From assembly GCA_003518365.1 (NCBI GenBank), contig DOYU01000021.1, forward strand, positions 492 through 64,491: a stretch of 64,000 nucleotides of DNA, read 5' to 3'. The stretch is from Candidatus Magasanikiibacteriota bacterium (GTDB lineage: Bacteria > Patescibacteriota > Patescibacteriia > Magasanikbacterales > UBA922). The notes beneath the pieces are model-generated. The model did no database searches. It saw nothing but the letters and a program-made list of their open reading frames with translations, and was not told the DNA's origin. Shown piece after piece: positions 5,597 through 56,812 of the stretch (position 1 is the stretch's first letter; each line of letters opens with the position of its first letter). Position numbers and translations under genes: made by a program.

Positions 5597-5606
5597 AAAT
5601 AATAAA

Positions 5607-5640
5607 AAAACAACTCACAAAAAATGTGAGCTGTTTTTTT
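5607..5640. terminator. Rho-independent terminator, bidirectional in form, after nrnA
   Basis: AAAAAAA-CAACTCACA-aaaaa-TGTGAGCTG-TTTTTTT: a stem-loop with A-run and T-run flanks. Confidence 0.7.
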
Positions 5641-5776
5641 ATTTCAAAAGGTTTCGTCTTTTGTCTTATGCTGAGAAGACTCATCAGTCCAGATATCATC
5701 TGAAAACCTCAATGCGACCCTGCAACACGATACCGAAGCATCGTGGCAGAGTCGCTGCAAGAGAACGTGGGAGGCA

Positions 5777-6565: not shown

Positions 6566-7102
6566 TCAGATGCCGTCTTGCCATCCGGGGTCGTAGACCA
6601 CTTGAATGGTGTACCTGCTCCCAGGTGTCCAGTCGTAGATGGGAAATCTCAGCTTTGGTGAGGTCTCGACACCATCATTGACTCGCAGGAGAAATTTGAA
6701 CATGAGGTTGTGGGACACGAGTTCGAGTGTCACACCGCCATTCATAGGGGGCGCGACCATCAGCTCGACCTCGATCTCTGCACCTTCAAGGAGCTGAAAA
6801 TCGAAGATCTCGTTACTCGCGAGATACTCATCGAGCGTAGGTCCCTCTTCATCACTCACATAGTACTCTCCATGAAAGAACCAAATGGGAGCGACCTCCC
6901 CATCCGGCAGGGTGACCGTCACCTTCCACACACCATTGGCCCAGAGAGAAGCGAAGGCTCCTTCTCCACCATAATGAAAGGTGATGCTTGGCTCAGAGGA
7001 ATCTTCCTCCTGCGGAATTTCCACATCTGGAAGGATGGTGGTGTCACAGCCGCCAGAGCTGTAGACGAAACCGAACAGAGCGAGAAAGATAAGTGCGTGC
7101 AT
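6566..7102 (-). CDS. Secreted lipoprotein, copy 2 of the tandem family
   Basis: Internal Met at MHALIFLALFGFVYSSGGCD (lipobox). LDEYLASNEIFDFQLLEGAEIEVELMVAPPMNGGVTLELVSHN aligns with copy 3. Confidence 0.65.
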   Translation of the reverse strand: MHALIFLALFGFVYSSGGCDTTILPDVEIPQEEDSSEPSITFHYGGEGAFASLWANGVWKVTVTLPDGEVAPIWFFHGEYYVSDEEGPTLDEYLASNEIFDFQLLEGAEIEVELMVAPPMNGGVTLELVSHNLMFKFLLRVNDGVETSPKLRFPIYDWTPGSRYTIQVVYDPGWQDGI

Positions 7103-7116
7103 GAAATACCTCAGTG

Positions 7117-7166
7117 TGAATGCGACCATTCGTCAACGTACGGGACCACCCCGCACGTAAACGTAT
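7117..7166 (-). promoter_or_regulatory. Conserved 5' leader element shared by lipoprotein copies 2 and 3. The second copy is at 7917-7965.
   Basis: About 50 nt are nearly identical directly upstream of both start codons: GAAT(G/A)CGACCATTCGTCA(A/G)CGTACGGGACCACCCCG(C/A)AC...AAACGTATC. It contains a CGGG-ACCAC-CCCG hairpin. Confidence 0.45.
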
Positions 7167-7376
7167 CAATCACATCCACATGACGTTGATCTTTCAAACG
7201 TATGATACCATACGTTTGACAGTAAAAAATAGCAGAAAAAACAATTTTGTCAAGTGTCCAAATAAAAAATTGCCTCATATTAGCAATTTCAAATATTTTT
7301 CAAAAGTGAAGCGAAGCGGCCGGCGCAGCGCTGCAACTCCGAAGAGTGCGCGCCACGCCGGTCGCAAGGTGAGAGA

Positions 7377-7895
7377 TCAGGAGCAGGTGCCGTCCGGCAC
7401 GAGCTCCACGAAGTAGGCACGAGGTTCACCCACCGATGTGTAGATGGGCAGATAACACGTGGGCACTCCCCGGTTATTCGTGAACTGATACGCCTGTTGA
7501 TGGGAGACCAAGGTCATCTGCTCGGCACCATTCTCTGGTGGAGATTCGATGAGCTCGACATGGATGGTCTGTCCCTCTGTCAGCTCAAAATCCAGGAACT
7601 CATTCTCCGCCAGGTAGCCATCCAGCTTCCCGGCATCTTCATCAAGGACTTCGTACGGTCCAAGAGAGCGCCAAATCGAAGCAGCAGACCCGTCCGGATT
7701 AAGAACGCTGATCTCGCAGGCTCCTCGGCACCAAAAGGTTCCAAAGTTCTTCTCTCCGAGGTCATGCACTACAACTTTTGCGCCGTCTGCCTTCCCGACC
7801 TTTGGTGTGTCGGATATGCCCTCAATGTCCACATCGCAACCACCAATGAAGATGGCGACCAGCGCAAGAATCATGGTGATAATCGTGAGATGCAT
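7377..7895 (-). CDS. Secreted lipoprotein, copy 3 of the tandem family
   Basis: Internal Met at MHLTIITMILALVAIFIGGCD, with GGAGGA upstream. LDGYLAENEFLDFELTEGQTIHVELIESPPENGAEQMTLVSHQ is paralogous to copy 2. Confidence 0.65.
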   Translation of the reverse strand: MHLTIITMILALVAIFIGGCDVDIEGISDTPKVGKADGAKVVVHDLGEKNFGTFWCRGACEISVLNPDGSAASIWRSLGPYEVLDEDAGKLDGYLAENEFLDFELTEGQTIHVELIESPPENGAEQMTLVSHQQAYQFTNNRGVPTCYLPIYTSVGEPRAYFVELVPDGTCS

Positions 7896-8201
7896 CGCGT
7901 CCTCCATAGAAGTATGAATACGACCATTCGTCAGCGTACGGGACCACCCCGAACACAAACGTATCTGCCGCATCCATACTTCTGTGATCTCTCAAAAATA
8001 TCATATCAAACTAGGAGTATTTTTCCTAGTTTGAATAGATGAAGATAGCGTATTTTGCGACGTTTGTCAATATATTAAATATCTGGCTGTATTGCTTACG
8101 CATGTTTCATTGTCAAATTGTTACATTGTTATATTGTTGATGATATTAAATAGATTGATATATGATAATTGTTATTTGCTATCTGAAATGTTAGCACTCT
8201 C

Positions 8202-8230
8202 TTGACAAGACTGATAATCTTCTCTATGCT
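8202..8230 (+). promoter_or_regulatory. Sigma70-type promoter for clpP
   Basis: TTGACA, a 17 nt spacer, then TATGCT, about 55 nt upstream of the clpP ATG. Confidence 0.5.
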
Positions 8231-8284: not shown

Positions 8285-8875
8285 ATGTTTATGCATTCTC
8301 AATACCTCATCCCAACCGTCATCGAAAAAACATCACACGGTGAACGTGCATACGATATTTACTCTCGCCTTTTGAAAGATCGCATTATTTTTCTTGGCAG
8401 CGCGATCGATGACGGCGTCGCAAATACCATCATCGCTCAGCTCCTCTTCCTGGCAAATCAAGACGCGGAAAAAGATATCAAACTCTATATCAACTCCCCT
8501 GGTGGATCCGTCACCGCAGGTATGGCCATCTACGACACCATGCAATTTGTAAAACCACATGTTTCGACGATTTGTATCGGCATGGCAGCAAGTATGGGAT
8601 CAGTCCTCCTCGCAGCAGGAGAAAAAGGAAAACGTTTTGTCCTCCCAAATAGTGAAGTGATGATTCATCAAGTCCTCGGTGGGACACAAGGGCAAGCAAG
8701 TGATATTCAGATTCATGCAGAACGCATTGTCAAAATGAAAAAACATCTGAATGAAATTCTTGCAAAACACTGTGGCCAAACATTTGAAAAAGTAGAAAAA
8801 GACGCAGACCGAGATTACTTCATGAGTGCGGAAGAAGCTGTGACATACGGACTTGTGGACAAAGTTATATCGTAG
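8285..8875 (+). CDS. clpP: ATP-dependent Clp protease proteolytic subunit
   Basis: [11 protein letters not shown]...[20 protein letters not shown]...[14 protein letters not shown]...MIHQ places the catalytic Ser, His and Asp in context. Confidence 0.95.
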
Positions 8876-8904
8876 TTCACGAGTCACTTAACACGTAGCA
8901 CGAA

Positions 8905-9135
8905 ACAATCTTACTCTGAACGGGAGGAAACCTTGCCAGGCAAGACTACGCTTCGCTAAGATTATGTTTCACCTACGGTGAAACAAGATTGAAGATTACT
9001 TCACAAAAAGAAGGACATGCATGATATGCATGTCCTTCTTAGCATGTAACATAATCTTCAATCTTTTTTGCCGTAAGGCAAAAGTAATCTTAGTGGAGCG
9101 AAGCGAAACGCAATCTTACGTTGCACTAGGACACA
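8905..9135. repeat. Imperfect palindrome of about 230 bp between convergent genes. It has a perfect 15 bp central hairpin, branch hairpins and AATCTTAC direct repeats. Candidate structured ncRNA or compound bidirectional terminator.
   Basis: The arms pair CGCTTCGCTAAGATTA with TAATCTTAG-GCGAAGCG, and GATTGAAGATTA with TAATCTTCAATC. The centre is AAGAAGGACATGCAT-gat-ATGCATGTCCTTCTT at ~9008-9040. Side hairpins are GTTTCACC-tacg-GTGAAAC and TTTTGCC-gtaa-GGCAAAA. Confidence 0.5.
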
Positions 9136-9170
9136 CGTTGTCACATACTATGTGACTCGTGTCTCGTGAA

Positions 9171-10364
9171 CTACGTGAACAAAACAAACACACTATACAC
9201 TGCTCCAACAGTCAACACGAGCAAGAGCAATGCACCAAGGAGTGCGATATGATGCAATTTATATTTTCCAGGATCAAGATCACCCAATTTTTTTGCGCGC
9301 CAATAAATCAGAAGAATGAGCAACATCTCAATACTACCAAACACACCACCGACAATATTGATCGCGGCAACAAATTGTCGAAGACCTAATAAAAAAATGA
9401 TACAAGGAATACCAAGTGTCACCACCGTCGCAATGCGCCCACTCATATGATAATCCCATGACAGTGAATCTTTGAGCGATACACCATTGAGCAAAAAGCT
9501 GGTCGCCATGGCAAAGAATGCAAACGCATTGCCAAACAAAAACAACGTGTGGCCGAGCCTATTGCCAAGGCCTATCGTTGCAATTTCTGTTGTCCCCTGT
9601 CCTGTCACCCCTACAACGACGAGCGCAAATGTCAGATACAGCGCCATGACGAGCAACCCTCCTATGAGGATCGCGCGACGAAATGCTCCGTTATCATCTT
9701 TCAAAAGGGCATGTATCTCAGGCACTGCTGTCGTACCATGGAGAGAAAATAAGACCACACCATAGGGAAGAAAGAGATAGGCAAGATTTGTGGTATAGAG
9801 ATGGGTGATGTCAATATGTGGCACACTCAGTGACGTGATAAACAACACAATCACCAAAATGCCAATGGTGAGAATCAGTTCAGCGGTCTTCACAGTGCGA
9901 AGCCCGAGCATCACAAGGAGTGCTGCGAATACAAAGAACACCAGACTCCACTCTACGCTACTGCCCCCAAAGAGCGCAGCAAGCGTTTCCCCTTCTCCAA
10001 TCAGATAAATCACGAGCGCGCCAAACAGCATGCCATACATCATGACGGTCATGATCATCCCGCCTGCCTTTCCTAAATATTTTTTTGCAAACCCAACGAG
10101 CTGAAACGACCCATGTGTTCTCACTGCGACTTCGCCAAGCATGAGATTCAGTCCGATCATAAGCGCGCCTAAGCCAATAATATAGAGCACCCCAATCAAC
10201 ACACCCGCTTGTGCTACAGCATAGGGCAATCCGAGCACTCCAGCACCGATCGTCCCACTGATCATGAGTGCAACGCCTTCAGCCATAGAAAGTTTGCGTC
10301 GAAAAATTCCTTGATGCATGGCAAGGTCTGTGATTTCTAGTTGTGGGCGTTTTCGAAAGAACAT
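9171..10364 (-). CDS. Amino-acid permease, Aa_trans / aromatic amino acid (Trp/Tyr) permease-like, 11-12 TM
   Basis: Highly hydrophobic. N-terminal SMAEGVALMISGTIGAGVLGLPYAVAQAG resembles amino-acid/H+ symporters. The start is ambiguous between 10364 and 10319. Confidence 0.55.
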   Translation of the reverse strand: MFFRKRPQLEITDLAMHQGIFRRKLSMAEGVALMISGTIGAGVLGLPYAVAQAGVLIGVLYIIGLGALMIGLNLMLGEVAVRTHGSFQLVGFAKKYLGKAGGMIMTVMMYGMLFGALVIYLIGEGETLAALFGGSSVEWSLVFFVFAALLVMLGLRTVKTAELILTIGILVIVLFITSLSVPHIDITHLYTTNLAYLFLPYGVVLFSLHGTTAVPEIHALLKDDNGAFRRAILIGGLLVMALYLTFALVVVGVTGQGTTEIATIGLGNRLGHTLFLFGNAFAFFAMATSFLLNGVSLKDSLSWDYHMSGRIATVVTLGIPCIIFLLGLRQFVAAINIVGGVFGSIEMLLILLIYWRAKKLGDLDPGKYKLHHIALLGALLLLVLTVGAVYSVFVLFT

Positions 10365-11732: not shown

Positions 11733-14399
11733 TTATGACAACGTATCTACCAATGAGTCTGCCAATCCAATATATTTTTCTGGTGTCAGTGTAAAAAGAA
11801 ATTGTTTGTCTTCTTCAGAAATATCAAGTGTTGCGACAAAATTCCTAATTGTTAGGCTATCAAGTCGTGTTCCCCTACTCAATTCTTTTAATCGTTCATA
11901 CGCATCCTGCTGTCCATACTTTCGCAACATGGTTTGGATTGCTTCGGTAACGATTTCCGGATGTGCCTGCAATTCTTGCACAAGCGCAGACTGATTTGGG
12001 GTAATCGTAGCCATTCCTTTTATCATACTTTTTACTGCCAAGAATGCATGCGCAAGTGCTACGCCTTGATTGCGTATCATTGTGCTTCCGCTAAGATCTC
12101 TTTGCATACGTGAGACTGGCAGATGCGTCGCCAATGTTGTAAACAATCCGTTGGCAAGAGCAATATTGCCTTCAGCATGTTCAAAGTGAATCGGATTTAC
12201 TTTATGCGGCATGGTACTTGATCCAACATGTTCTTTCTCTACCATTTGTCCAAACATTCCTCGACTAATATAGAGCCACATGTCTCGCGCCAGATCGAGA
12301 AGGATGGTATTTATACGAGAAACAATCTGATAACTTTCTGCAAGTGAATCATATGTATTGACTTGCGTCGTGAGCAGTAATTGTTCAAAGCCAAGGCTTG
12401 CAAGAAATGATTTGTGAAATCGAGGCCAGTCCACGTGCGCATCGAGTATCTGGTGTGCAGCAAACGTTCCTGTTGCCCCACTGCACTTTGCATCAAATGT
12501 CATGTTTGTAAGATTCGCACGCTGCTTTTTCAGTCTCTCTACAAAGACGGCAATTTCTTTCCCGACCGTAGTGGGTGTTGCCGCTTGTCCATGCGTGAGG
12601 GCAAGCATGGGGAGTCTCGCATGTGTCTTTGCAAATGTGGTTAGTGTGCTCATCAATCTATCAAGCGTTGGAACAAAGACCGTGCTCAGTGAATCACGCC
12701 AGAGTGACAGATATGCAATGTTATTGATATCTTCTGATGTCAGTGCGATATGAATAAAGGGAATTGCATGTGAAAGACCAAGCAATGGCAATCGTTCTTG
12801 CAAAAATATTTCAACGGCTTTTACATCATGATGAATCCTTTTTTCAATCTGTTTTACACGCGCAGCATCTTCGAGAGAAAACAATGTTGAAATGTTTCTA
12901 AGCTGCTCTTTTTGTATGTCTGAAAACGAAACCAACGCCGTGAAGGTTGTTTCTTCTGCGAGTGCAATAAGATATGCAATTTCAATATGCACACGAGAGC
13001 GAATCAATGCGTATTCTGAATGATATGCTGCAAGTTCTTGGACTTGTTCATAATATCGTCCGTCGATTGGGGAAATAGCAGTCAATGCGTTGTCAGCACC
13101 TTCTGCAAGATGTGAAGACAACACAACGGTTTCTGAACGCTTTGGACCAAATGACACAATACCGATCGGACACCCGACTTCTTTTTCTATGAAAGAGAGA
13201 TATGTCTGCACTGCAGGGTCAAATCCTTGCATCGTTGTTGGCATCTCGCCTGTGTACACCTGTTGCCATCCAGAGAGCGTGGTGTACACGGGCTGCGCCT
13301 TTCGCATGTCAGACAAACTTGCCGGCATTTCGTGAACAAGTTTTCCATCAATATAATACGCCGTACATACCTTCAATTCATCAAATCCATTCAAGACATC
13401 GAGCTTTGTAATTGCAATTTCAGTGAGTGGATGTACGCGGGCACTTTGCCTTACTTGCACCAAATCAAGCCAACCAATGCGACGCGCTCTCCCTGTCGTT
13501 GTCCCATATTCTTGTCCAAGTTCGCGGATACGGTCCCCGACCGAATCAGTCAATTCTGTCACAAACGGACTTGTCCCGACACGACTAACGTATGCTTTTA
13601 CCACACCGACAATCCGCTTTGGCGCATTGATGCCAAGTCCACTTCCGACTTCTGCGTGCGCTGCGACATTGTTTGAACTTGTCGTATGTGGATACAATCC
13701 ATGATCAGGATCGAGTGACATTCCTTGTGCTCCTTCAAAAAGGATACGTTTCCCTGCTGTATACGCGTGTGCGAGTTCCACTTCGGTATCAGCAATATAT
13801 TGTTTGAGTTGTTGTCCGTATGCAAGATATTGATTCGTGATTTCTTCTTTTGAAGATTGGAAGGTGCCACGAAGAACATTGGTAATCATGCCCACGTTGA
13901 AATCATACGCTTTGTCCAATTTTTCTCGAAACAGCTCTGGCTCGAGCAAATCGCCCATACGAATTCCATGGCGATACATTTTATCTGCATAGACCGGGGC
14001 AATACCACGCTTGGTGCTTCCGGCAGCGAGCGCACCCTGATGCCCAGAGAGTGCTTCATCCATGGCAATGTGATACGGCATGATGACATGCGCGCGTTCG
14101 CTGATAGCAAGTTTCAGTGGTCTACCGTTTTTTGTGATTTCTGCGATTTCTCCGAGAAGCACGCTGGGATCAATGACAACGCCATTTCCTATCACAGAAT
14201 GGGTGTGTTCAGATACCACGCCACAGGGCAACAGATGCAATTTGTATGTTTGTTCTCCAACGACAATCGTATGCCCAGCATTATTTCCTCCGTGAAATCG
14301 AACAACATACTCTGCATCACTCGCAAGCACATCTGTGATTTTTCCTTTCCCCTCATCCCCCCATTGAGCACCCACGACAACGGTTGTTTGTGGTTTCAT
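11733..14399 (-). CDS. purA-purB: Fused adenylosuccinate synthetase (PurA, N-terminal ~425 aa) and adenylosuccinate lyase (PurB, C-terminal ~445 aa) in one 888-aa ORF
   Basis: N-terminus VVVGAQWGDEGKGKITD...GGNNAGHT is the PurA P-loop. Junction ...IVSFGPKRSETVVLSSHLAEGADNALTAISPIDGRYYEQ... has no stop; I checked it by reading the DNA. The C-terminus carries the fumarate-lyase signature GSSTMPHKVNP and the PurB start motif SPIDGRY. Confidence 0.85.
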   Translation of the reverse strand: MKPQTTVVVGAQWGDEGKGKITDVLASDAEYVVRFHGGNNAGHTIVVGEQTYKLHLLPCGVVSEHTHSVIGNGVVIDPSVLLGEIAEITKNGRPLKLAISERAHVIMPYHIAMDEALSGHQGALAAGSTKRGIAPVYADKMYRHGIRMGDLLEPELFREKLDKAYDFNVGMITNVLRGTFQSSKEEITNQYLAYGQQLKQYIADTEVELAHAYTAGKRILFEGAQGMSLDPDHGLYPHTTSSNNVAAHAEVGSGLGINAPKRIVGVVKAYVSRVGTSPFVTELTDSVGDRIRELGQEYGTTTGRARRIGWLDLVQVRQSARVHPLTEIAITKLDVLNGFDELKVCTAYYIDGKLVHEMPASLSDMRKAQPVYTTLSGWQQVYTGEMPTTMQGFDPAVQTYLSFIEKEVGCPIGIVSFGPKRSETVVLSSHLAEGADNALTAISPIDGRYYEQVQELAAYHSEYALIRSRVHIEIAYLIALAEETTFTALVSFSDIQKEQLRNISTLFSLEDAARVKQIEKRIHHDVKAVEIFLQERLPLLGLSHAIPFIHIALTSEDINNIAYLSLWRDSLSTVFVPTLDRLMSTLTTFAKTHARLPMLALTHGQAATPTTVGKEIAVFVERLKKQRANLTNMTFDAKCSGATGTFAAHQILDAHVDWPRFHKSFLASLGFEQLLLTTQVNTYDSLAESYQIVSRINTILLDLARDMWLYISRGMFGQMVEKEHVGSSTMPHKVNPIHFEHAEGNIALANGLFTTLATHLPVSRMQRDLSGSTMIRNQGVALAHAFLAVKSMIKGMATITPNQSALVQELQAHPEIVTEAIQTMLRKYGQQDAYERLKELSRGTRLDSLTIRNFVATLDISEEDKQFLFTLTPEKYIGLADSLVDTLS

Positions 14400-17505: not shown

Positions 17506-17610
17506 AGATTTAGAATGTTGAATGTCCCGCAAAGCGGGATAGAATGTAGGATCTTGAATGCAGAATATGGAATGTTGAATGCAACATTCTACATTCTATA
17601 TTCCACATTC
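17505..17610. repeat. Array of at least 7 copies of the heptamer AGAATGT/ACATTCT in both orientations, plus one GTCCCGC-AAA-GCGGGAT hairpin, between the EamA and GH genes
   Basis: Read directly: ...GAATGTTGAATG TCCCGCAAAGCGGGA TAGAATGTAGG...GAATGTTGAATGCAACATTCTACATTCTATATTCCACATTCTAC... Confidence 0.5.
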
Positions 17611-18524
17611 TACAATACAAAAAGTGCTGAGCCCAGTATAACAAATATCATCGCCACTGTCTGTACGGCAATCTCTCGACGAGAAAATGTTTCTTTCAAA
17701 ACACGTGGCGCAAATTTGGTGAGGAGCACGATGAAGAGGGTCATCAAGGCATACTGCACACCAACAAGTGCATTCACGAGCGTCACACTACCAACTGCGA
17801 TCGCGAGCTGGATGAGGACCACACCGACCACGCCGAGGACTTTGTTACTCACAATAATCAGTATGCCTCTGACGCCGCGAAACGCAGCGTTTTCTCCTTC
17901 TGCTTTTTTCACTCGATGAAACGTATTGCGAACAGCAGGAGAAAAAAGACAAACAATCCCAACCAACCCGGTCGTGGCGCGCGTCCACACAAATCCGGTG
18001 AGAAATGGATAGAGTTCATACAAATATTTTGCTGTCACGTGTGAGATAGCAAAGAGAAGAGCCGCAAGGATTCCCCACGCAAAACTGCTGTTGAATTCTA
18101 CAAGCCCTTTCTCATTAAAAAATGCGAGTAACAATGTTGCTCCTGCAAGCACTGCCATGCCGGCGATCTCAATCGTGCGAAGTGTTTCCCCGAGAAAAAC
18201 AAACGCGAGCACAAAAATAACAATGGTAATCATCGCGCCAATAAATGGGTTGATATGGCTTGCTTCTCCCTTTTTTACGGACAAAAACATTGCCCACAAA
18301 CCAAATCCAAATCCAAGCCCAGAGACAAGTGCCCAGAGCCAATCAATCCCATGTAAAAGCCCTACTCCAAACGGAAACGCAAGCAGCGCGCCAAACATGA
18401 AGATGGTAGAATAAAACGTATACACAATAGGATTGCTAAGTGTTTTTGTGAGGATCAATTTGTCGAGCACAAACACAATCGCAAGTGCAACGTATCCGGC
18501 AAGAGCAAGAAGTAACCAAAGCAT
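17610..18524 (-). CDS. EamA/DMT-family transporter (10 TM)
   Basis: Two-repeat hydrophobic topology typical of EamA. No soluble domains. Confidence 0.6.
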   Translation of the reverse strand: MLWLLLALAGYVALAIVFVLDKLILTKTLSNPIVYTFYSTIFMFGALLAFPFGVGLLHGIDWLWALVSGLGFGFGLWAMFLSVKKGEASHINPFIGAMITIVIFVLAFVFLGETLRTIEIAGMAVLAGATLLLAFFNEKGLVEFNSSFAWGILAALLFAISHVTAKYLYELYPFLTGFVWTRATTGLVGIVCLFSPAVRNTFHRVKKAEGENAAFRGVRGILIIVSNKVLGVVGVVLIQLAIAVGSVTLVNALVGVQYALMTLFIVLLTKFAPRVLKETFSRREIAVQTVAMIFVILGSALFVL

Positions 18525-19430: not shown

Positions 19431-19455
19431 ATTTGAAATTAGAAATTAGAAATTT

Positions 19456-19488
19456 GTCCCGCAGAGACGGGATCCCGCTTTGCGGGAC
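19456..19488. promoter_or_regulatory. Overlapping alternative GC hairpins GTCCCGCagagaCGGGATCCCGCtttGCGGGAC immediately after the glycosyltransferase stop, followed by a (GAAATTA)n repeat before the AKR gene
   Basis: Segments A=GTCCCGC, B=CGGGATCCCGC and C=GCGGGAC can pair as A:B or B:C locally, or A:C at long range. Same motif family as the hairpin at 17524-17540. Confidence 0.4.
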
Positions 19489-41067: not shown

Positions 41068-41084
41068 CAATTTATTTCAACAAA

Positions 41085-41160
41085 AAAGCCACTCACTTCC
41101 CCCCTGTACTGATGCTGAGAATCTCAGAAGCAATACAGGATGTGTGAGTGGCTTTTGTTG
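41085..41160. terminator. Bidirectional terminator with a 13-bp outer stem enclosing an inner hairpin
   Basis: AAAAGCCACTCAC...CTGAGAatCTCAG...GTGAGTGGCTTTT. Confidence 0.6.
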
Positions 41161-56727: not shown

Positions 56728-56812
56728 AGAACATAAGCAATAAACACTAAACAATAAACAGTCGTTACTCAAAATTGTTTATTGCCTGCTGTTTATTGTT
56801 TATTTTTTTCAT

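Follow-up and report, generated by a model that had tools for sequence, protein, structure and literature searches.

What is the large nested palindrome that separates the converging ends of clpP and an aromatic amino-acid permease gene in a groundwater genome of Candidatus Magasanikbacteria, a member of the candidate phyla radiation (CPR/Patescibacteria)? The question arises from a 64,000-nt stretch of this genome (contig DOYU01000021.1 of assembly GCA_003518365.1, positions 492 to 64,491; hereafter "the window"), in which an initial annotation, made from the sequence alone, had marked a 230-bp imperfect palindrome and proposed a 6S-like or other structured noncoding RNA, with a compound terminator as the fallback. 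The palindrome is real and conserved, and it is probably functional. Comparative sequence data lead us to favor, with confidence falling just short of even, a bidirectional intrinsic terminator that has been elaborated with two mirrored, individually selected 3′ untranslated region (3′ UTR) modules. The bidirectional terminator at its core is of a familiar kind; what is new is the variant represented by the mirrored modules.

As first annotated, clpP (+ strand) and the permease gene (− strand) converge, an arrangement on which the open reading frame (ORF) list and Pfam agree, and the intervening spacer measures 295 bp. The nested palindrome occupies 8871-9175, or 305 bp, includes both TAG stop codons within its outermost arms, and consists of three nested layers: outer heptad arms, modules, and a central hairpin. 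Its features, with the two genes, are as follows.

8285-8875, + strand: clpP gene, 196 aa (ORF list; Pfam CLP_protease, E 3.9e-88)
8873-8875, + strand: clpP TAG stop codon, first triplet of the left outer arm
8871-8908, no strand: left outer arm, starting at the clpP stop; degenerate heptads CACGAGT CACTTAA CACGTAG CACGAAA
8906-8914, no strand: CAATCTTAC, a reversed copy of the AAGATT motif where the heptad array meets the inner region; conserved in the relative L011
8932-8944, no strand: small local hairpin CTTGC-CAG-GCAAG in a loosely conserved left-arm stretch; predicted in folds
8942-8964, + strand: shortened first left module, AAGACT-ACGCTTCGC-TAAGATTA; pairs with 9085-9105 (inverted repeat I10)
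8965-8985, no strand: side hairpin A, TGTTTCACC-TAC-GGTGAAACA; inverted repeat I11, filling a 27-nt module
8985-8998, + strand: double heptad AAGATTG AAGATTA (AAGATTGAAGATTA), the innermost motif pair of the left arm; inverted repeat I3
9003-9045, no strand: central bidirectional intrinsic terminator; A-run at 9003-9007, inverted repeat I4 (100%)
9008-9022 with 9026-9040, no strand: central stem, perfect over 15 bp, loop GAT (3 nt)
9052-9065, − strand: TAATCTTCAATCTT, the double heptad AAGATTGAAGATTA in the permease sense
9066-9083, no strand: side hairpin B, TTTTGCC-GTAA-GGCAAAA; predicted in folds
9085-9119, − strand: outer modules of the right arm, TAATCTTA-GTGGAGCGAAGCGAAACG-CAATCTTAC, at 26-nt spacing
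9138-9175, no strand: right outer arm, mirroring 8871-8908 (inverted repeats I1 and I6) and containing the permease stop codon
9171-9173, − strand: permease TAG stop codon, reading CTA on the + strand
9171-10364, − strand: aromatic amino-acid permease gene, 397 aa from the publicly called start (Pfam Trp_Tyr_perm, E 2.2e-28)

The extent originally given for the palindrome captured a real structure, as 8905-9135 has a predicted folding energy of −96 kcal/mol, compared with −46.7 ± 4.4 among 200 dinucleotide-shuffled sequences (z −11.1). That extent was too short, however: the further arm pair of 8871-8908 with 9138-9175 (inverted repeat I1, 38 nt, 74% complementary) extends the palindrome to its full length, and the stop codons sit in the mirrored 11-mers TAGTTCACGAG and CTCGTGAACTA. 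For the full 305-bp unit, z-scores are −14.0 (+ strand RNA), −11.4 (− strand RNA), and −14.2 (DNA). Every blockwise pairing that had been named is present—CGCTTCGCT (8949-8957) with AGCGAAGCG (9097-9105), TAAGATTA (8957-8964) with TAATCTTA (9085-9092), and AAGATTGAAGATTA (8985-8998) with TAATCTTCAATCTT (9052-9065)—as are the perfect 15-bp central hairpin with its 3-nt loop and the side hairpins on each arm (8965-8985 and 9066-9083). The center of the predicted fold is a four-way junction bearing the perfect apical hairpin. No consistent strand bias in folding energy, G-U content, or G-U versus A-C mismatches was found among five species, which would suit transcription of the two strands into RNAs of one kind.

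The central hairpin lies ~130 nt from each of the convergent stop codons, and its sequence suggests a bidirectional intrinsic terminator whose action, in this species, would be strong on the permease transcript and weaker on that of clpP. On the A-run side, CACAAAAAG (9002-9010) precedes the stem, and the mirrored A-run is found in all orthologs; the tail of the hairpin reads CUUCUUUUUGUG on the − strand and, more weakly in the window, CUUCUUAGC on the + strand. The earlier remark that clean U-runs are lacking holds for the + strand (CCUUCUUAGC) and fails on the − strand. In four relatives (L017, L100, L114, and L098), the + strand tail is good. A consensus terminator scanner missed the central site because its T-run lies partly inside the stem. 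The arrangement of A-run, stem, and T-run nonetheless marks the spacer center in each of the nine lineages (the window, L011, L014, L103, L017, L100, L114, L098, and L099), with central hairpins that are recognizably related across groups (GAAGGACATGCAT, AAGAACATCGCAT, AAAACATCGG). Among the eight relatives with readable spacers, five module-bearing ones show compensatory changes in this hairpin, and the fallback of a compound terminator is thereby supported for the core.

Ordinary bidirectional intrinsic terminators likewise place an A-run, a G+C-containing hairpin, and a T-run between two stop codons, readable on both strands, and like-built hairpins without nested arms occur at other convergent gene pairs in the window (5601-5643, 41084-41156). 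Such terminators span 30-50 bp (e.g., 5601-5643), whereas here ~130 nt of conserved mirrored modules, superfluous for termination, stand on each side. A small protein was considered and rejected: the candidate ORF of 44 codons (9021-9155) has its start within the terminator stem, lacks an L011 counterpart, and only mirrors the nucleotide conservation.

The layer outside the terminator is built from a module consisting of an AAGAYT hexamer and a 20-21-nt filler that forms a small hairpin, with the arms mirrored. Hexamer starts lie 25-28 nt apart, mostly 26-27, in every arm of the window, L011, L014, L017, L100, and L103; this spacing is independent of filler sequence, and at the shortened first unit of the left arm it falls to 16 nt. 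The window's element holds nine AAGAYT copies in 301 nt against ~0.43 expected, four on the + strand in the left arm and four on the − strand in the right arm, plus one reversed copy (CAATCTTAC, 8906-8914), which is directly repeated at 9111-9119. In the permease sense, the right outer modules read AAGATTG-CGTTTCGCTTCGCTCCAC-TAAGATTA. Of the 12 arms in the six module-bearing lineages, 9 have the double heptad, and the other three have a variant or none. Fillers fall into two classes, those with a TTCG/GCTTCGC core and those with a T-rich 5′ side and an A-rich 3′ side (e.g., TTTTGCC-N4-GGCAAAA). In the AAGAYT motif and the GCTTCGC core it is the sequence itself that is conserved; the stems of the central and side hairpins keep their pairing through changes on both sides and occur in alternative forms (TTTTGCC/GGCAAAA, TTTCACC/GGTGAAA, TGTTGC/GCAACA, and TTCTTGCC/GGCAAGAA), the first three of which are the variants among which the stem of side hairpin A covaries from arm to arm, and loops vary freely. 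Side hairpin B has the loop GCAA in its L014 ortholog, and the same hairpin occurs in the opposite arm of L017.

In the outer layer, CACGTAA-type heptad arrays start 0-4 nt after each stop codon in mirrored orientation and occupy the equivalent place in L011, L014, L098, and L114; the right outer arm additionally holds the local hairpin GTCACAT-ACT-ATGTGAC. Concerted evolution of the outer arms was not detected, as left-versus-right scores within species were not consistently above those between species, except in L011. Each heptad of 8873-8898, and of the matching arms in these four relatives, contains TAA or TAG; since 7 is not divisible by 3, these triplets recur in shifting frames and close the two remaining reading frames soon after the stop codon. 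Both are closed within 30 nt in 6 of 10 arms, compared with 5 of 43 control genes. This frame closure may be a by-product of heptad composition.

Conservation in homologous loci, which had been proposed as a check on the palindrome, was found for the sequence and for its hairpins alike. Other genomes were reached through permease homologs, and a scan of metagenomes added one partial lineage, L103. Spacers agree at 246 of 286 aligned columns between the window and L014, at 206 of 245 between the window and L011, and at 203 of 263 between L017 and L100. The window spacer is thus 84-86% identical to those of L014 and L011, whereas identity at four-fold sites is 0.59-0.62 in clpP and 0.38 in the permease gene (0.41-0.62 and 0.30-0.38, respectively, over all three pairs); Fisher p values for spacer versus four-fold sites range from 3e-7 to 3e-25 for window-L014 and from 8e-5 to 4e-22 for window-L011. 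Third positions match in 6-7 of the 15 codons touching the spacer, and a conserved spacer flanked by diverged third positions indicates a conserved island, not a recombination tract. The arms, being conserved well above the silent-site level, bear out the original impression of something more than a normal terminator. In an RNAalifold analysis of eight arm sequences from six lineages, both sides had changed in 7 of 21 pairs (e.g., GGAC/GTCC vs. GAAC/GTTC).

The two arms have evolved separately, each as an orthologous unit. Orthologous arms are 0.75-0.80 identical, while the two arms of one genome are 0.68-0.70 identical, or 0.54 in L017 and 0.41 in L100. The window and L014 hold arm-specific details in common, the left arm having hairpin A and the right arm having hairpin B and, alone of the two, a TCCAC insert. 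L011 has lost 39 nt of the left arm and L103 most of it, with the right arm intact in both, and such losses of a single arm beside an intact partner indicate that modules are independent of their counterparts in the other arm. These comparisons are consistent with purifying selection acting on the modules arm by arm. Both double-heptad copies of L103 carry a one-base insertion and can still pair; together with a perfect 26-bp mirror in L011, these paired insertions may reflect some selection or conversion for complementarity.

The element has been seen only where clpP and the permease gene converge, in a small clade of Candidatus Magasanikbacteria, and six or more species-level lineages, their silent sites saturated, have it in one and the same position. 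Convergence of the two genes is limited to this clade (permease identity ~60% or above); in Magasanikbacteria farther removed, the neighbors differ, and permease homologs at 58-59% identity are followed by metK, not clpP. The window's own ClpP protein is unchanged on 21 public contigs, including LCHA01000004 of GCA_001000125.1, and the spacer is base-for-base identical in the 10 contigs carrying this ClpP that were compared. All three layers, namely modules, central hairpin, and heptads, occur together in the window (295-bp spacer), L011 (253 bp), and L014 (299 bp). Modules and central hairpin without heptads are found in L017 (271 bp) and L100 (332 bp), as well as on the partial contigs L103 and L115; heptad arrays surround a plain terminator in L098 (123 bp) and L114 (122 bp); and L099 (89 bp) has a plain terminator only. 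The spacer of the P0008 lineage, 86 bp, is known by length alone. The simplest history is that of an ancestral layered element whose layers were lost repeatedly. In one relative, L092, an extra − strand ORF-like stretch (7155-8216) lies between the permease gene and clpP in a spacer of 1060 bp; downstream of clpP, eight xxGAATx heptads and a canonical terminator take the place of the palindrome.

If transcription ends at the center, each arm becomes the 3′ UTR of one mRNA, and the palindromic nature of the DNA means that both mRNAs carry the same ordered signal in sense orientation. From the stop codon onward, each mRNA would present CACGUAA-type heptads, modules, the double heptad AAGAUUGAAGAUUA, and the terminator, with two to three modules per mRNA, each a single-stranded (U)AAGAYU followed by a 20-21-nt hairpin. 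The modules would most likely act in RNA, the AAGAUU linkers between hairpins of fixed size being presented to a putative RNA-binding protein or endoribonuclease; linkers and hairpins together would set the stability and processing of the 3′ end. Because the U-run is weaker in the clpP direction, some clpP transcripts may read through the center. A read-through transcript of this kind could fold arm on arm into a multibranched duplex of ~300 nt, and any transcript extending into the permease gene in antisense would be blocked or marked by this fold.

Several points weigh against this account. The conserved AAGAYT motif shows no covariation, so that sequence cannot separate an RNA motif from a DNA motif, and both the constant 26-27-nt spacing and the heptad arrays would also be expected of an array of sites for a DNA-binding protein. 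Varied heptad arrays are common at gene starts and gene ends in this phylum, equally at both, and thus do not constitute a 3′-specific device. The mirroring between the outermost arms reaches across 260-290 nt and, in L011, is perfect for 26 nt; long-range mirroring is not required of independent 3′ UTRs and fits folding of the whole palindrome, or processes at the DNA level, better. Modules have been lost in the close relatives L114 and L098, and both outer layers in L099 and probably in the P0008 lineage with its 86-bp spacer, which implies that the element is dispensable. Lastly, what the sequences show directly is the architecture of the element, its terminator grammar and conservation, its covarying hairpins, its single copy, and its restriction to one clade; the end points of transcription, the extent of read-through, action at the RNA level, and the existence of a binding factor are things that we infer.

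A functional precedent for hairpin clusters acting as both terminator and stabilizer comes from the REP clusters of E. coli (REP325), described as dual 3′ UTR elements of this kind (preprint 10.64898/2026.03.23.713779); according to the same preprint, two convergent genes with REPs between them tend to be more highly expressed. The REP/BIME elements of enterobacteria are likewise intergenic, downstream of genes, and often between convergent genes, and they likewise form mirrored strings of small hairpins with short conserved linkers, for which a role in 3′-end formation and mRNA protection has been proposed. However, REPs consist of a high-copy, dispersed unit of ~35 nt together with the RAYT transposase, whereas the present element is single-copy, locus-specific, and syntenic.

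A more ambitious proposal, which we regard as doubtful though worth stating, is that the modules are a previously undescribed cis-regulatory 3′ UTR element of CPR bacteria, with single-stranded UAAGAYU linkers, spaced by small hairpins at a 26-27-nt pitch, read by a putative RNA-binding protein or ribonuclease; such an element would couple the stability of the mRNAs for a protease subunit and an amino-acid importer and would represent the most elaborate case of a phylum-wide, undescribed heptad/hairpin grammar. Gene regulation in CPR bacteria is barely known, and these organisms cannot be grown alone; the element offers a testable handle on their post-transcriptional control or on a nucleic-acid-binding factor. 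The locus also shows a plain bidirectional terminator elaborated into a large nested palindrome, and even if the arms are dispensable, it is a clear case of palindrome growth around a terminator.

Two further explanations, each unlikely, survive better than the rest. The AAGAYT copies and CACGTAA heptads could be operator- or centromere-like sites of a DNA-level binding array, symmetric about the center, with a possible role as a transcription roadblock or in nucleoid organization or recombination, akin to the heptad arrays of ribbon-helix-helix proteins. Such an array would account for a short motif kept in sequence while its fillers vary, for the constant spacing, for the strict mirroring of four motifs on each side of the center, and for the favoring of neither strand; moreover, CACGTAA-type arrays also occur on the promoter side of genes (L032 5850-5970, L100 7264-7395, and window 8103-8138). 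However, filler hairpins are maintained by compensatory changes, for which binding to double-stranded DNA has no need, and a spacing of 26-27 bp corresponds to 2.5 helical turns, so that each site would face away from the next on the helix. With a gene end on either side, the location also offers no promoter to be controlled. Nor is a candidate DNA-binding gene found consistently beside the element: the window neighbors have no Pfam DNA-binding domain, and L100 has modules yet lacks any small gene between clpP and the DHH gene. The WATCACW heptads of the omega repressor of plasmid pSM19035, a ribbon-helix-helix protein, overlap promoters next to the omega gene. They are likewise contiguous and arranged in direct and inverted orientation, and AATCACA and AATCACG (L014, L011) resemble them; the arrays here, by contrast, abut stop codons and have no ribbon-helix-helix gene consistently nearby.

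About equally unlikely is a functionless mutational by-product, in which slippage builds the heptads, template switching at the terminator hairpin inverts the flanks, and the resulting palindrome is tolerated. Across ~1.04 Mb from ~90 Magasanikbacteria loci, 7 is the commonest period of intergenic tandem repeats, and 66 of 112 period-7 arrays fall within the 17% of DNA that is noncoding; their units are diverse, and they are found as often near gene starts as near gene ends. Hairpins flanked by inverted pairs recur (window 17540-17614 and 56733-56808; L100 7264-7395), layers are patchily present among close relatives, and the outer mirror of L011 is perfect over 26 bp, all as this process would produce. 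It does not readily explain a spacer that is 84-86% identical, and flanked by diverged third positions, where silent sites are 38-62% identical; nor does the retention across species of arm-specific details (hairpins A and B, the TCCAC insert) suit ongoing homogenization.

Less probable again is a source of small RNA, in which an arm plus the terminator would yield a 70-100-nt 3′ UTR-derived small RNA or the transcript of a weak promoter, and the AAGAUUGAAGAUUA stretch would act in trans as a seed or a protein sponge. Conservation within each arm is highest immediately before the terminator hairpin, a position that matches known 3′ UTR-derived small RNAs. RNase E is reported to prefer RN|WUU, which AG|AUU fits. 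A weak promoter-like sequence, TTGCCA-18-TAAGAT, at 8933-8962 has a counterpart in L011 (TTGCAA-18-TAAGAT), but the match is 9 of 12, it is degraded in L014 (TCGCAA...TAAGAC), and the other arm has no properly spaced equivalent; no Rfam small RNA family matches either.

The structured noncoding RNA of the initial annotation, a single stand-alone molecule, 6S-like or other, spanning the whole palindrome, is very improbable. A very stable predicted fold, with closing stem, branches, and apical hairpin, and conserved sequence are what it would require, and 6S RNA is likewise a long irregular hairpin of comparable overall size. Yet the apical hairpin terminates in both directions and would cut the transcript in half, neither strand is favored, the fold centers on a four-way junction in place of the large, open-promoter-like central bubble of 6S RNA, the ends fall on protein-gene stop codons with no bracketing promoter or terminator, and arms have been lost one at a time. 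The Rfam scan suggested as a check returned, over the whole window at gathering score and over 8700-9400 at E <= 10, three tRNAs and chance matches to generic miRNA-precursor hairpins only; no family reached threshold, and 6S RNA gave no hit at either setting.

Least probable of all is a miniature inverted-repeat transposable element (of the Correia/ERIC type) or REP/BIME-like mobile palindrome inserted with a TA target duplication, since the TA on both flanks of its terminal inverted repeats (GTTCACGAG, CTCGTGAAC) is part of the two stop codons, one copy is present in the 64-kb window and stands at the same site in at least six lineages, and no transposase lies nearby, the patchiness of modules among relatives notwithstanding. 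Searches for a second copy, using terminal inverted repeats and motifs in the window, nhmmer with a four-species alignment over ~0.9 Mb, and a module scan of 1.04 Mb, identified none; the AAGAYT-hairpin-AAGAYT module occurs only in this spacer, bar one array at another L032 locus. Nothing was returned by blastn against phage and plasmid sequences, and viral contigs yielded single-copy 14-mer matches only, with nhmmer negative there. L114 and L098, which are without modules, keep the outer heptad arms and a homologous terminator and so are not clean empty sites.

Other identities were considered and set aside. A TIGR array (TIGR-Tas, PMC12045711) does not fit: among eight neighbor proteins, a Pfam scan detected neither a Nop nor an IS110-type domain, the loops of the hairpins measure 3-4 nt, and the fillers are conserved between species, not variable. 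The half-sites of the 16-bp parS palindrome TGTTNCACGTGAAACA occur in hairpin A split by 5 bp (TGTTTCAC-CTACG-GTGAAACA), and no canonical parS is present in the window; this split form, ~4.5 kb from smc, is found only in the window and the L014 lineage (including the species-representative copy L019) and is probably a coincidence. A dif/Xer site has two 11-bp arms around a 6-8-bp center and lies where GC skew switches; here, the central loop is 3 nt, and cumulative GC skew shows no turn at 9 kb.

The clpP-permease element is the most elaborate and best-conserved case of a broader, undescribed intergenic style. CACGTAA-type arrays occur elsewhere in L032, L048, and L100, three of them with at most three mismatches to (CACGTAA)x3 against ~0.02 expected. 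Arrays of CACGTAA or TAAGATT type stand at other gene boundaries in L032 (5850-5970), L048 (2324-2344 and 7302-7322), L100 (7264-7395), and L035 (7197-7225). In L048, a stop codon lies inside a heptad array; in L035, where clpP is absent, an AAGATT array directly follows the permease stop codon, and shorter AAGATT arrays flank the permease gene in L035 and L046. The distant Patescibacterium L032 carries, at an unrelated locus, a further AAGATT palindrome (2158-2300) with ~5 AAGAYT-type units, two G+C-rich hairpins, and ~6 inverted units, situated between co-directional UDP-glucose-dehydrogenase-like and epimerase genes of sugar metabolism. Within the window, tandem arrays are found at 1068-1097, 8103-8138 (period 8), 17540-17614, 19431-19454, and 56733-56808; no lag-7 periodicity was seen across the window's intergenic DNA, and the arrays are discrete features. 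The G+C-rich hairpin TCCCGC-NNN-GCGGGA occurs twice (17525-17539 and 19473-19487; 0.06 expected), each time beside a heptad array, and may represent a small dispersed hairpin family.

Intergenic direct repeats of heptamers, such as the STRR of cyanobacteria, are found in other phyla as well. The TAACTGA repeats of Beggiatoaceae are of this kind (PMC4679880). Both likewise consist of tandem, noncoding 7-nt units near gene boundaries, with stop codons inside them and a suspected post-transcriptional role. They reuse one unit genome-wide, mostly in direct arrays near start codons, whereas units here differ by locus (CACGTAA, AAGATTR, TAGAATG, ATAAACA) and often form inverted pairs around hairpins. 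The dominance of 7-nt arrays among the intergenic tandem repeats of Magasanikbacteria is a question separate from that of this element.

Additional observations concern the genes nearby. A CIRCE-like inverted repeat, TTAGCACTC-N9-GACTGATAA, at 8191-8217 (with 8202-8230) overlaps the predicted clpP promoter TTGACA-17-TATGCT, and similar CIRCE-like sites lie upstream of clpP in L011, L098, and L114; HrcA-type control of clpP in response to heat shock is probable in this clade. TAGCAC heptads downstream of clpP resemble CIRCE half-sites but lack an inverted partner at 9-bp spacing. Two paralogous hypothetical genes without a Pfam match lie upstream of clpP on the − strand (6566-7129 and 7377-7973). 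A short ORF (7044-7169) overlaps the 5′ end of the former, and a repeated stretch, GWSRTLTNGRIHT, is common to this ORF and the 5′ end of the latter, with leaders near 7044-7169 and 7900-7973. The interval between clpP and the DHH gene differs in gene content in every relative. Farther along the window, adenylosuccinate synthetase and adenylosuccinate lyase are fused in a single 888-aa gene (11733-14399, − strand), as they are in L014; in L011 the two are separate genes, and the lyase is fused to a HAD hydrolase domain.

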